Origin: Promethearchaeota archaeon
GTDB lineage: Archaea > Asgardarchaeota > Lokiarchaeia > Sigyniarchaeales > SOKP01
Reading direction: 5' to 3'
Assembly (NCBI GenBank): GCA_019894975.1
Contig: JAGXNO010000008.1
Span: 8,294-72,293 of the forward strand
Length of the DNA: 64,000 nucleotides
Shown here: in pieces, positions 14,659-48,861 of the stretch
How positions within the stretch are numbered: the first letter of the stretch is position 1
How the letters are laid out: every line of letters begins with the position of its first letter
Made by a program: the position numbers and the translations under genes
Notes under the pieces: generated by a model
Databases searched by the model: none
What the model was told of the DNA's origin: nothing
Seen by the model: only the letters and a program-made list of their open reading frames with translations

Positions 14659-14829
14659 GTGTTATCTAAATTAAACCTAGGAAAAGGAGAAGTAGAAGCC
14701 ATTAATCTATGCTTTGAAATTAAAGCCCCATTATTACTTATTGATGAAAAAAAAGGCAGGAATATTGCTCAATCTTATAAATTATCAGCTTGGATTTATC
14801 AAAAAATAATGGTAAAACTGAGTTTCTAG
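14659..14829 (+). pseudogene. Remnant of a PIN-like (DUF3368-type) nucleic-acid-binding protein gene
   Basis: The frame reads ..LSKLNLGKGEVEAINLCFEIKAPLLLIDEKKGRNIAQSYKL.., matching the L-x-GE-x-EAI..LLLID-x-x-GR core of that family. The N-terminal half is missing (stop at 14638..14640, no ATG), and the tail diverges and overlaps the next ORF. Confidence 0.35.
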
Positions 14830-15182
14830 GATATAAAGTCAATTTTCCTAATCCAAATCAGCTTAAAATTTATAATGGAAAAATGAGATTTGATGGTTTT
14901 GCAAGAATAAAAATAAATGGAAAAACAATCCAAATTGCATTTGAGTATAATGGCAAGCAACACTATGAATTTCCAAATTATTGGTTTGAAAATTCTGATC
15001 GGGGATATAAGGCATGGTTAGAGTATATTGAAAGAGATCAGATTAAGAAAGAAATTTGCAAATTGAATAAAATATACTTGATAGAAATACCCTTCTATAT
15101 AGATCTTGCGTTAGAACACCCAAAAAAAATCCAATCTTATATCATAAATCAATTTGAATTAATTTCTGGTATAAAATTATAA
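14790..15182 (+). CDS. Putative PD-(D/E)XK-type endonuclease-like protein
   Basis: 130 aa with RFDGFARI..(8)..IAFEYNGKQHYEF....ERDQIKKEICKLNKIYLIEIPF. This matches the D...E-Y-x-G-x-QH...RD..K...C pattern of restriction-endonuclease-fold stand-alone nucleases. TTG start. Confidence 0.4.
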   Translation: MDLSKNNGKTEFLGYKVNFPNPNQLKIYNGKMRFDGFARIKINGKTIQIAFEYNGKQHYEFPNYWFENSDRGYKAWLEYIERDQIKKEICKLNKIYLIEIPFYIDLALEHPKKIQSYIINQFELISGIKL

Positions 15183-15320: not shown

Positions 15321-15849
15321 ATGGTTTATGACATTAAAAGTGATATTACTGAAATAATAAATCGCATTGAAAAAGAAAATATCTCATTAAAAGATAAGAC
15401 AGTTTTAGTAACGGGGGGCGCTGGCTTCTTAGGTTCATGGGTCTGTGATGTCCTAGTTGAACAAGGGGCTTATTGTATATGTTTAGATAATTTGACGTCT
15501 GGTCAACCAAAAAATGTTCAACATTTAATGGAGAAAGATAATTTTAGGTTTATTAATCACGATATCTCGTACCCTATATATTTTGGAATGAGTTACCATC
15601 CATTAGGTATTTGCATTGGTGATATTAAAAAAATTGATATTGTTATGCATATGGCAAGTAGAGCCTCACCATTTGAATTTCAGAAAGATCCTATAGCGAT
15701 TCTTAGGAGCAATACGTTAGGAACATTAAATTCGCTAGGAATAGCAAAATTCCATAATTCGATATTTTTCTATACGAGCACTTCTGAGGTTTATGGAAAC
15801 CCACCGAATGAAGAGATACCATCTCCAGAGACTTACTTTGGGCACGTAA
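15321..15849 (+). CDS. UDP-glucuronate decarboxylase / UDP-xylose synthase-like extended SDR, exon 1
   Basis: VLVTGGAGFLGSWVCDVL (Rossmann GxxGxxG), MHMASRASP, TSTSEVYGNP...ETYFGHV. As an ORF it then runs into ILV-stop at 15858..15860. Confidence 0.8.
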
Positions 15850-15880
15850 TTCTTGTATAAGGATTCCTACAAGAGCGTAT
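15850..15880 (+). other. Putative 31-nt bulge-helix-bulge (BHB) intron inside a protein-coding gene
   Basis: Inner helix 15851-57/15868-74 (7 bp). Bulge 15848-50. Central helix 15844-47/15875-78 (4 bp). Bulge 15879-81. Outer helix 15838-42/15882-86. Removing these 31 nt joins GTA A|AC CCA to give GHVNPVGPRSCYDE. Confidence 0.65.
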
Positions 15881-16413
15881 ACCCAGTAGGTCCAAGGAGC
15901 TGTTATGATGAGTCTAAGAGGGCGGGGGAAGCTTTCATTAAGGCATATGAACTACAACATCAAATGAGAACAAAGATTGTAAGAATTTTTAACACTTCTG
16001 GGCCAAGAATACGTCATGGACCTGAGTTTGGCAGAGTTGTTCCAAATTTTATACATCAAGCGGTAAACGATGAAGATATTACTATTTTTGGGGATGGATC
16101 ACAAACAAGGTCTTTTATTTATGTGGTAGATGAGATCGAAGGAATCCTAAAAATGGTGTTTAATGATGAAGCAAATGGAGAGGTTATTAATTTAGGCAAT
16201 GATAAAGAATATACCATATTAGAGTTAGCGAATATCATAAAAGATTTAGCAGGTTCTAATTCAAAAATAGTTTATAAACCACTACCTATTGATGACCCCG
16301 TACGTCGATGCCCCGATATCACGAAAGCAAAAAAAATCTTAAATTGGGAACCTACAACTTCCTTGGAAGAAGGACTTAAAAAAACCATTGCATGGTTCAA
16401 AGATAATGAATAA
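15881..16413 (+). CDS. UDP-glucuronate decarboxylase / UDP-xylose synthase-like extended SDR, exon 2
   Basis: (N)PVGPRSCYDESKRAGEAF contains the catalytic YxxxK. It continues with RIFNTSGPR and PDITKAKKILNWEPTTSLEEGLKKTI, a typical UXS/ArnA-type C-terminus. It sits in the +1 frame relative to exon 1. Confidence 0.8.
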
Positions 16414-36608: not shown

Positions 36609-36711
36609 ACGCAGATGGAGGGATTCGAACCCCCGAGCGCTTATGCGCACTGGCTCACTTGGTTGTATAATACACTCAAGGCCAGCGTCTTACCAACTAG
36701 GCTACATCTGC
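36609..36711 (-). tRNA. tRNA-Ser(UGA), class II, with a canonical 37/38 intron of 20 nt (window 36655..36674)
   Basis: Acceptor GCAGATG/CATCTGC+G. Anticodon arm CTGGC-CTTGAG[TGTATTATACAACCCAAGTG]A-GCCAG. Long variable arm TGCGCATAAGCGCTC. T-arm GGGGG-TTCGAAT-CCCTC. Confidence 0.8.
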
Positions 36712-47407: not shown

Positions 47408-48175
47408 ATGTCTTTAGAATTTCTCAATGCTTTTAAATTTATGAAAAAAGAATCTTTTCTACATAATCTAGATCCAAGAACCAAGTTAGTACTTGCATTG
47501 ATTTATACGATAGGTGCATTACTATACAATCAAATTATGCCATTACTCTTTATTTTCTTGAGTTTACTTCCAATAGTTGTATTTGGTAAAATTTTAAAAC
47601 AATGGGTAAAGAGCATTCGTGGTTTATCATTCTTAGTAATTTTTATCATAATATTAAACACTTTATTCATTTCATTATCATTTGCTATAGCAATGGTATT
47701 GAGAATTTGTATAATGGTTTCAGCTTTTTCAATCTTTTTTTTAACTGTAGATCCAAATGACTTAGCCCTTTCTTTGATCTCTATGAAGGTTCCTTATGAA
47801 TTTGCTTTTTCCTTCTCATTAGCATTTAGGTTCGTACCAACAATTGCTACTGAAGCCCAAAATATAATGGATGCTCAACAAAGTAGAGGTTACGAGATGC
47901 AAAAAAAAGGAATCATTAGTCAAATTAAAAACCTCTTTCCTTTATTAATCCCATTAATCATATGTTCAATAAAGAGAGCCTTTAATGTAGCAGAAGCTTT
48001 AGAATCAAGAGCCTTTGGAAGCAATAAAGAACGTTCATATTATTATACCATCAAATTCTCAAAAAAAGATTGGATTTTTACGATTTATCTAATTTTATTT
48101 CTTATAACACTAATCTTGATAAGAATTCAATTCAATTCAATGCCAGATTGGTTTTTATGGAGACTCCCAGTATGA
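47408..48175 (+). CDS. ecfT: ECF transporter transmembrane component (EcfT/CbiQ)
   Basis: Polytopic 255 aa with ALSLISMKVPYEFAFSFSLAFRFVP and the conserved A-x-x-x-R-G-like segment AQQSRGYE. It follows the two ATPase genes. Confidence 0.8.
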   Translation: MSLEFLNAFKFMKKESFLHNLDPRTKLVLALIYTIGALLYNQIMPLLFIFLSLLPIVVFGKILKQWVKSIRGLSFLVIFIIILNTLFISLSFAIAMVLRICIMVSAFSIFFLTVDPNDLALSLISMKVPYEFAFSFSLAFRFVPTIATEAQNIMDAQQSRGYEMQKKGIISQIKNLFPLLIPLIICSIKRAFNVAEALESRAFGSNKERSYYYTIKFSKKDWIFTIYLILFLITLILIRIQFNSMPDWFLWRLPV

Positions 48176-48861
48176 TTACAAGAGAATTCTATATTAAACA
48201 ATTGGAACTAAGATATTTTGTGGCTATAAATCAATTTAACCTTGATTTAAATCATCTATTAGAAAGAAATAAAATAACTAGTGAAGAAAAAGTTTTAGAT
48301 CATCTATTTAAAACATTACAAGAAATCCAAGATAACAATAAAGAATCAGTAATACAGATAATCTGTGATAAATTTATTCTAAACCAGGATCATATTTATA
48401 TTGCCTGTTATTATATGCAAAAAGCATTTTTTCGTAAAACAAATATATCTAATACGAAAAACATTGAACTAATGCTCTATTTATCAACTTATAGGCAAAT
48501 TAGCAAAGCTATTGAAACCGTTGGTATTAATTCCCATGATCTAAAAGCAGGAAATATAATAATCTGTATCATCTCTCCAATTGATAATACCCCCAAAATT
48601 AACGAGGAGATCTTACAGATTCTTAATGCCAATGAGACGGAGTTAACACTAAATAACATGACGAGTGAAAAAATTAAAAAAATCATTGAGAACTATAACA
48701 TTTTAGATTCTCAAATAAAACCGGTTTTAAACTCATATCTTAACAAAGAAAAGAGTAAAAATGATGTAGATAATGAAGTAGAAATCTTATCTTCTGCTGT
48801 GTTTGATTTAATTTGCGAAAAAATGGCACTTCTGAATTTAGAAAAAATAAAGTCGCGTTAA
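48172..48861 (+). CDS. Putative KEOPS subunit Cgi121
   Basis: The ATG at 48172 overlaps the ecfT stop (ATGA). IQIICDKFILNQDHIYIACYYMQKAFFRKTNISNTKNIELMLYLSTYRQISKAIETVGI matches the archaeal Cgi121 core pattern (..hh..A...A...F.....s+sh..EhLLY.SG.RQI..AI...G). By-eye match only. Confidence 0.5.
   Translation: MITREFYIKQLELRYFVAINQFNLDLNHLLERNKITSEEKVLDHLFKTLQEIQDNNKESVIQIICDKFILNQDHIYIACYYMQKAFFRKTNISNTKNIELMLYLSTYRQISKAIETVGINSHDLKAGNIIICIISPIDNTPKINEEILQILNANETELTLNNMTSEKIKKIIENYNILDSQIKPVLNSYLNKEKSKNDVDNEVEILSSAVFDLICEKMALLNLEKIKSR

Follow-up and report, generated by a model that had tools for sequence, protein, structure and literature searches.

The question raised by this locus is why the coding sequence of one enzyme is divided between two open reading frames (ORFs) that lie in different frames. 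The locus is found in a stretch of 64,000 nucleotides from a Promethearchaeota archaeon (contig JAGXNO010000008.1, positions 8,294 to 72,293), hereafter the window, and it concerns a gene of the UXS (UDP-glucuronate decarboxylase) type on the forward strand. Judged from its sequence, 15321..16413 is very probably a functional UXS gene carrying a 31-nt archaeal bulge-helix-bulge (BHB) pre-mRNA intron, which EndA, the splicing endonuclease, would excise before RtcB, the RNA ligase, joins the exons.

The interrupted UXS gene and the structure at its junction

In the ORF list of the window, the ORF at 15321..15860 encodes 179 amino acid residues with the C-terminus ...ETYFGHVILV*, and the ORF at 15853..16413 encodes 186 residues from a TTG start in a different frame. 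When 15321..15849 was joined in silico to 15881..16413, a single ORF of 353 amino acid residues was obtained. Deletion of 15850..15880 gave GGG CAC GTA AAC CCA GTA GGT, which is translated as GHVNPVG, and when the 31-nt deletion was shifted by -1 or +1 nt, the Asn of this motif was replaced by Tyr or Ile, respectively. The joined protein was aligned with human UXS1 (2b69, 4gll) at 282–285 bits over residues 25–350, and the alignment was gap-free at the junction, across GHVNPVGPRSCYDE (...GHVNPvGPRsCYDE...). This full-length similarity was accompanied by the GxxGxxG motif (GGAGFLG) and the catalytic YxxxK motif (YDESK). The NCBIfam models gave only sub-threshold hits to related sugar-nucleotide enzymes among the extended short-chain dehydrogenases/reductases (SDRs), and no equivalog cut-off was reached. 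Orthologs with 78–91% identity bear the source name UDP-glucuronic acid decarboxylase, and the closest proteins to the spliced product come from metagenome-assembled genomes (MAGs) of Promethearchaeota (Asgard). The exact substrate of this UXS-type enzyme is presumed from these sequence relationships.

Exon 1 (15321..15849, + strand) comprises codons 1–176 and the first base of the Asn177 codon and contains the NAD-binding motif GGAGFLGS; its assignment is based on the ORF list, the in-silico splice, the UXS1 alignment and the NCBIfam hits to extended SDRs. The putative intron (15850..15880, + strand; UUCUUGUAUAAGGAUUCCUACAAGAGCGUAU) occurs as a single copy in the window, and its excision is the sole deletion that restores GHVNPVG. 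Exon 2 (15881..16413, + strand) begins with the second base of the Asn177 codon and ends with the stop codon, with the catalytic YDESK located 8 residues past the junction. The intron lies mid-CDS, beside the active site. In the predicted spliced RNA, ...GGGCACGUAA would be joined to ACCCAGUAGG... at 15849/15881 (+ strand), and the predicted junction peptide of the spliced UXS is ...ETYFGHVNPVGPR (...YFGHVNPVGPR).

With RNAfold, 15830–15895 was folded into the BHB as its minimum-energy structure (-22.4 kcal/mol, z = -3.8), a stability reached by 0 of 200 shuffled sequences. The BHB consists of two 3-nt bulges on opposite strands with a 4-bp helix between them, flanked by an inner helix of 6–7 bp and an outer helix of 3 + 8 bp, which has a UU bulge and a single unpaired C; all elements lie on the + strand. 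In the 5′ strand of the outer, exon–exon helix h (15830..15842), 15830–37 and 15840–42 are paired, UU 15838–39 is bulged in the minimum-energy fold, and C15843 is left unpaired next to it. The 3′ strand (15882..15892) is made up of CCC 15882–84 and AGUAGGUC 15885–92, so that the RNAfold helix, GGG/CCC plus GACUUACU 15830–37 / AGUAGGUC 15885–92 with the UU bulge, is longer than the one drawn in the original prediction. The central helix H is formed by the exonic strand ACGU (15844..15847) and the intronic strand GCGU (15875..15878), with the pairs A-U, C-G, G-C and U.G. The inner intron hairpin h′ (15851..15874) pairs UCUUGUA (15851–57) with UACAAGA (15868–74), and it contains an apical AGG/CCU mini-stem and an exon-1-frame stop codon, TAA, at 15858–60. 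In the 5′ bulge AA|U (15848..15850) the predicted cut follows 15849, and in the 3′ bulge AU|A (15879..15881) it follows 15880.

Cleavage between the second and third bulge residues is the rule for archaeal pre-mRNA introns (PMC2738675). Cuts after the second bulge nucleotide were the only placement that yielded both GHVNPVG and the 353-residue ORF, and the same rule held in a more distant relative, L072, whose intron is 30 nt long. On this level the original prediction stood: its helices, bulges and unpaired C15843 were all present in the sequence, the BHB cut sites coincide with the frame-restoring junctions (15849/15850 and 15880/15881), the deletion needed for GHVNPVG is exactly 15850..15880, and the coordinates, the ORF endings and the UXS1 alignment agree that the two ORFs are, as read from their sequence, the two halves of one extended-SDR enzyme, a UXS.

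A loose BHB geometry was frequently obtained by chance. With both strands counted, shuffled windows of this 32% GC sequence gave ∼940 hits per 64 kb, of which ∼148 remained when an inner helix of at least 6 and an outer helix of at least 3 were demanded; geometry alone is therefore uninformative. For any one specified pair of cut sites, a BHB this good would arise by chance with a probability of ∼1e-5. The motif is significant because it sits at the sole two junctions by which the conserved Asn is regained, and because it is conserved in relatives. A window-wide scan for BHB geometry was discarded as a detector, given that it returned too many loose motifs and, with an ORF-merging filter, hits that piled up at ordinary gene boundaries. 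In the window scan, only 15850–15880 combined a perfect central helix with an inner helix of at least 7 and an outer helix of at least 5.

Conservation, selection and recombination among relatives

The genomic relatives comprised the best 80 loci in species-representative genomes of GTDB, and the UXS gene was uninterrupted in 76 of them. A 31-nt insert was found at the same site in L082 (isolate WORC5) and L083 (CSMAG_1226). In L072, the protein of which is only ∼75% identical, a 30-nt insert at the same site keeps the frame and has a stop codon inside, which rules out read-through. Metagenomes were searched with a degenerate DNA pattern that was anchored on the exon flanks and left the insert free, and 26 contigs from several projects were found to carry a 30- or 31-nt insert at the UXS site. 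The alignment of orthologues called for by the original prediction thus shows a homologous insert in three other Asgard genomes and 26 contigs, while most orthologues lack it. In total, 21 distinct junction sequences were obtained (alignment A1), and the variants counted below are those of this alignment, which was partly selected by the search pattern in that ACGTAA and parts of exon 2 were fixed. Two candidates were discarded: L109 was a false positive of the DNA pattern, an intact gene with ACGTAA by chance upstream, and the insert of L081 was a run of N (2157–2258) with duplicated UXS flanks, a scaffolding artefact in a public MAG.

Selection was found to act on the spliced reading frame. 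After in-silico excision, every gene-spanning contig gave a stop-to-stop frame of 355–373 codons with a gene of 353–357 amino acid residues, except L103, which ends early after ...SQTRSFIY, and L105, which is fused to an unrelated methyltransferase-like ORF; both are probably chimeric or rearranged contigs. Between the window and ten other intron-bearing alleles, the ratio of nonsynonymous to synonymous substitutions (dN/dS) was 0.03–0.055 at a dS of 0.7 to >2 (saturated), and the introns of these pairs were 71–97% identical; L093 and L087, two further alleles, were too saturated for dS to be computed. A low dN/dS at saturated dS means that the interrupted gene is not dead. The original prediction had named relatives with destroyed helices as the sign of a dead gene, and the relatives keep the helices and have a spliced frame under strong purifying selection.

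The structure was conserved together with the frame. Standard pairs were formed in 88.9% of the pair cells of A1, compared with 35–46% when the partners were slid by 1–3 columns, and the outer helix had 91.8% of its cells paired. The C-G and G-C pairs of the central helix were invariant, and its U paired with G or A in all variants. Six pairs were changed on both sides, including a G-C to A-U double change in the inner helix in five variants; in L072, the closing pair of the outer helix, G15842-C15882, was replaced by A-U through two synonymous third-position changes. None of 500 shuffles reached the observed number of paired cells, of double-sided changes or the covariation score, and the number of further pair types was reached in 322 of 500. 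The BHB was the minimum-energy fold in 15 variants and a close alternative in the remaining 6. Across its variants, the family is a relaxed BHB.

The codons that form the exon–exon helix gave stronger evidence than the pairing counts. Of the 11 pairs of this helix, a mean of 10.1 could be formed in alleles with the intron, compared with a mean of 7.0 in 75 alleles that lack it. Where codons contribute to the helix, alleles with the intron have xAC, AAC and GAG, and those without it prefer xAT (87%), AAT (72%) and GAA (77%). In codons -7..+4, the synonymous third-position identity of divergent intron–intron pairs was 0.67–0.73 against 0.48–0.54 for intron-less pairs, and it was lowered to 0.36–0.39 when intron-bearing alleles were compared with intron-less ones; the neighbouring codon bins showed no difference in synonymous identity. 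Two of the 12 third positions were fixed by the search pattern, which explains only part of the excess. The structure is accordingly maintained by compensatory or compatible changes and by a codon choice that is coupled to the presence of the intron. Recent lateral spread was rejected as the sole cause of intron conservation, because, among divergent intron-bearing alleles, the rise in synonymous similarity was confined to the 12 codons that form the helix.

All 21 variants keep a stop codon (TAA or TAG) for the exon-1 frame, 1–3 codons past the start of the intron. The stop column corresponds to 15858–15860 (A1 columns 29–31), and L089 stops earlier, at columns 24–26. The stop codon overlaps the apical mini-stem, and the conserved feature may be the stop itself or the structure.

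The distribution of the intron is polymorphic. In a neighbour-joining protein tree, intron-bearing alleles fell into at least five clusters among the intron-less ones. The spliced protein of L087 and L094 is an exact match of P0121, which is encoded on L114 without an intron. Over 1912 nt, L087 and L114 differed at 9 positions; 8 of the differences were synonymous changes no farther than ∼55 nt from the intron site (Fisher p = 3e-8). The tract that differs between L087/L094 and L114 spans ∼70 nt centred on this site. A spliced cDNA was ruled out as the origin of L114, since the eight synonymous differences around the junction mark it as an intron-less DNA allele. In a second pair, L110 (with the intron) and L111 (without), the flanks were 100% and 99.7% identical and a 260-nt tract around the site was 84% identical; the direction of exchange could not be discerned from the comparison of these tracts. 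The tracts are the result of recombination and not of cDNA-mediated loss. The L087 tract was 94.7% like the other intron-bearing alleles, compared with ∼82% for the rest of the gene, which hints at an intron gain in L087, a hint that is confounded by the constraints of the helices. Assembly chimeras are an unlikely source of the mosaics, given that L087 and L094 are independent and identical contigs. Taken together, the intron appears to be old, mostly vertically inherited within a Lokiarchaeia-like clade and under structural selection, with occasional loss and regain by short-tract homologous recombination together with its co-adapted flanks. A miniature inverted-repeat transposable element or another small mobile DNA insertion was rejected: one copy was present in the window even when 3 mismatches were allowed, and the exact intron-core pattern matched only at the UXS site in 113 loci (∼0.5 Mb sampled). 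No target-site duplication was visible at the junctions of the insert.

The surroundings of the gene were conserved in part. Downstream, the neighbours of UXS (DUF1616, PmbA/TldD) are conserved; upstream, intron-less relatives carry a gene for a small GTPase of the Arf/Ras/Roc type (L111, 162–752; L113, 1289–1873), and the window carries an ORF of 130 residues of unknown family (14790–15182) and a DUF3368 fragment. Among five suspicious adjacent ORF pairs of the window that were compared with Pfam, no second split gene was found, and all were unrelated, complete genes. One such pair, 47408–48175 (CbiQ) and 48070–48861 (CGI-121) on the + strand, overlaps by ∼105 nt in different frames and belongs to unrelated families; the TTG start of 48070–48861 was probably called too far upstream, and the pair is not a split gene.

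Predicted splicing and rival explanations

In the proposed mechanism, the exon flanks of the pre-mRNA would pair with each other as the outer helix, four bases of exon 1 would pair with the 3′ end of the intron as the central helix, and the remaining intron would fold into the hairpin of the inner helix, which would leave a 3-nt bulge on either strand with 4 bp between them. EndA would cut after the second nucleotide of each bulge, that is after 15849 and after 15880, RtcB would then join the exons to form the Asn codon A|AC, and the 31-nt intron would be released, probably as a circle. Translation of the unspliced mRNA would end at the stop three codons into the intron and give a fragment of 179 residues without the catalytic Tyr and Lys.

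The tRNA genes of the window bear on the presence of this machinery. Three tRNAs and one tRNA intron were found with ARAGORN and Rfam, and the tRNA at 36610–36711 (minus strand) contains a 19-nt canonical BHB intron. The placement of the intron by ARAGORN gives the anticodon TGT (Thr), and a cut after the second bulge nucleotide gives the anticodon UGA (Ser); the assignment as tRNA-Ser(UGA) agrees with the 15-nt variable arm. The original prediction had the cut rule fitting four tRNA introns in the window: the rule does fit this intron, and the number was too high, only one having been found with these two programs. An intron-containing tRNA in the window suggests that a splicing machinery is present in the host. 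Asgard archaea are reported to have an EndA of the broad-specificity (alpha-beta)2 type, with an L1 loop that confers specificity for relaxed BHBs (PMC5829648).

Several points weigh against splicing by EndA and RtcB. The fourth pair of the central helix, A15844:N15878, was formed in 8 of the 21 variants and was A.C or A.A in the other 13, and C15843 was unpaired in all of them, so that most variants have, strictly speaking, 3 bp plus a mismatch, and a 2 × 4 internal loop; such an imperfect central helix requires a tolerant endonuclease. The covariation was modest, with few independent events among related sequences in an alignment that was partly chosen by the search pattern. The EndA of the host is presumed from the Asgard literature, and its splicing machinery as a whole from the tRNA intron of the window. 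As 20 nt of the structure belong to translated exon 1, its folding could meet competition from transcription-coupled translation in archaea. Finally, ten spliced proteins were looked up in a collection of 15 billion proteins, and no exon-identical intact counterpart was found there, the single exact hit being P0121 of the intron-less allele L114.

Of the rival explanations, the one that survives best keeps RNA removal and changes the enzyme: the insert would be excised by machinery other than EndA and RtcB, and the BHB-like fold would play a partial or incidental role in recognition. The imperfect central helix of most variants and the unpaired C15843 fit this idea, as does the fact that EndA cleavage is itself a prediction. 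It is nevertheless improbable, because the cut sites given by the BHB rule are exactly the only productive junction, the geometry is conserved, and no enzyme other than EndA is known to remove archaeal introns this short, its Asgard type being tolerant of relaxed motifs (PMC5829648, PMC2738675).

Splicing by EndA and RtcB must also be weighed against two explanations at the level of translation. In the first, the halves would be translated separately into two polypeptides, one of 179 residues and one of ∼186 residues that starts at TTG 15853, and an active enzyme would arise from their association; the insert would serve as a stop/restart junction. In favour of this, 14 variants have an intronic TTG in the exon-2 frame, and the intron of every variant contains a stop in the exon-1 frame. 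This is very unlikely, however, as 7 of the 21 variants (including L072, L087 and L096–L098) have no ATG, GTG or TTG between the last stop and exon 2, and the break would separate the Val of GHVNP from its invariant Asn, with the catalytic Tyr 8 residues further on, inside a stretch that shows gap-free alignment to UXS1. Separate translation would moreover leave the conserved BHB and the exon–exon helix unexplained.

Alternatively, ribosomes could skip the 31 nt in the manner of phage T4 gene 60, or they could read through after a frameshift. As in gene 60, a stop codon lies just past the putative take-off site and is accompanied by a stable hairpin. A hop from GUA 15846–48 could land only on GUA 15877–79, though, which would give Val-Tyr-Pro with Tyr in place of the Asn that is present in 75 of 75 intron-less alleles, and this landing codon is missing in 13 of the 21 variants (GCA, GAA or similar). 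We know of no bypass of the T4 gene 60 type in archaea, and translational recoding is likewise given very little weight.

A pseudogene, in which a UXS was killed by a small palindromic insertion with a chance likeness to a BHB, could be suspected from the frequency of loose BHB geometry in AT-rich DNA, from the splitting of UXS by gene callers, which annotate the interrupted gene as two fragments in the ENA assemblies, and from the 76 of 80 best genomic loci without the insert. It is effectively refuted by the selection data: the low dN/dS extends over both halves at saturated dS, no complete copy has a second lesion, the insert is kept in 21 distinct alleles from at least five gene-tree clusters, and the synonymous codons are adapted to the helices. 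An assembly or sequencing artefact, of the kind that the related locus L081 does carry, is already refuted, since the split gene has an identical junction on 40-, 94- and 96-kb contigs from three separate, independent ENA assemblies and sequence-variable homologous inserts occur in ∼30 contigs from unrelated projects, which also settles the check for an assembly error raised by the original prediction.

The core of the original prediction, that a UXS-type SDR gene of an Asgard archaeon is interrupted in its coding sequence by a BHB intron, is thus backed by all of the comparative evidence, from which the splicing of the intron follows as an inference. The further suggestion of post-transcriptional control of the enzyme found no support in the data: dependence on EndA and RtcB would follow from splicing, and regulation would not, which leaves a regulatory role of the intron as speculation. 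More tentatively, the intron may be regarded as an old, selected element whose recognition helix is embedded in the exons, so that the intron and its flanking codons would form a co-adapted cassette that is swapped between lineages by short-tract recombination; UDP-xylose synthesis would then depend on, and might be tuned by, EndA and RtcB.

Comparison with known systems

A 2023 review counted two archaeal protein-coding genes that are spliced by the tRNA machinery, cbf5 and HVO_1309, and expected more (PMC10485636). The statement in the original prediction that BHB introns in archaeal mRNAs are established only for cbf5 must therefore be widened to include HVO_1309, and its view of an Asgard case as new agrees with the searchable literature: no report of an Asgard mRNA BHB intron or of a spliced UXS gene was found in the searchable full texts, including PMC12918454 (subscription-only papers being outside this scope). 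The UXS intron is apparently the first such mRNA intron in Asgard archaea, the archaeal lineage closest to eukaryotes. With ∼20 natural variants and intron-less alleles in near-identical backgrounds, it offers a ready comparison for the effect of an intron on expression, and it provides a concrete substrate on which Asgard EndA and RtcB can be tested, in a case that resembles unconventional splicing of the eukaryotic IRE1/RtcB type. Because annotation pipelines call such genes as two fragments, metabolic reconstructions of Asgard archaea may wrongly lack UDP-xylose synthesis, and other spliced genes may be hidden in the same way. If more split ORFs with a BHB at the exact junction exist, a whole set of spliced protein-coding genes may have escaped notice in Asgard archaea.

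Compared with archaeal tRNA introns, the length of 31 nt falls within the quoted range of 11–175 nt (PMC2738675). The intron of the tRNA at 36610–36711 (minus strand) and the UXS intron share the hBHBh′ architecture, the cut rule and presumably the enzymes. The outer helix of a tRNA intron is the anticodon stem, whereas that of the UXS intron is translated coding sequence and is constrained by its codons; the UXS intron also has one extra unpaired C and a fourth central pair that is often mismatched. In eukaryotes, HAC1 and XBP1 mRNAs lose a short intron from their coding sequence without a spliceosome, at paired stem-loops that are processed by IRE1 and a tRNA ligase or RtcB, and the frame changes. 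As in the proposed UXS mechanism, an endonuclease cuts, a tRNA-type ligase follows and the reading frame is changed by the removal. HAC1 and XBP1 differ in that the endonuclease is IRE1, the recognition motif is another one and the switch is proven to be regulated by stress, while no regulation was shown for UXS.

Among archaeal mRNAs, HVO_1309 of Haloferax volcanii has a BHB at which the splicing endonuclease cuts, and spliced RNA is its major product (PMC10485636), which is similar to the proposal made here; its host is different, being a euryarchaeon with a homodimeric EndA. The closest likeness is to the cbf5 pre-mRNA intron of Crenarchaeota (Desulfurococcales and Sulfolobales), which is also short, located within a coding sequence and bordered by a BHB-like, often relaxed exon–intron motif, with cuts predicted between the second and third bulge residues (PMC2738675). 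The cbf5 hosts have a hetero-tetrameric (alpha-beta)2 EndA, a type that has likewise been reported for Asgard archaea (PMC2738675, PMC5829648), and both introns show a patchy distribution with inferred gains and losses and an intron sequence that is partly conserved beyond the needs of pairing (PMC2738675). The cbf5 gene encodes an RNA pseudouridine synthase of Crenarchaeota and its splicing was demonstrated, whereas the UXS intron, the splicing of which is inferred, lies in a sugar-nucleotide enzyme gene of Asgard archaea (Promethearchaeota); with UXS as its host gene, the intron is like that of cbf5 in its working and is not a member of the cbf5 family. Unlike in cbf5, the presence/absence polymorphism of the UXS intron is documented by recombination tracts.

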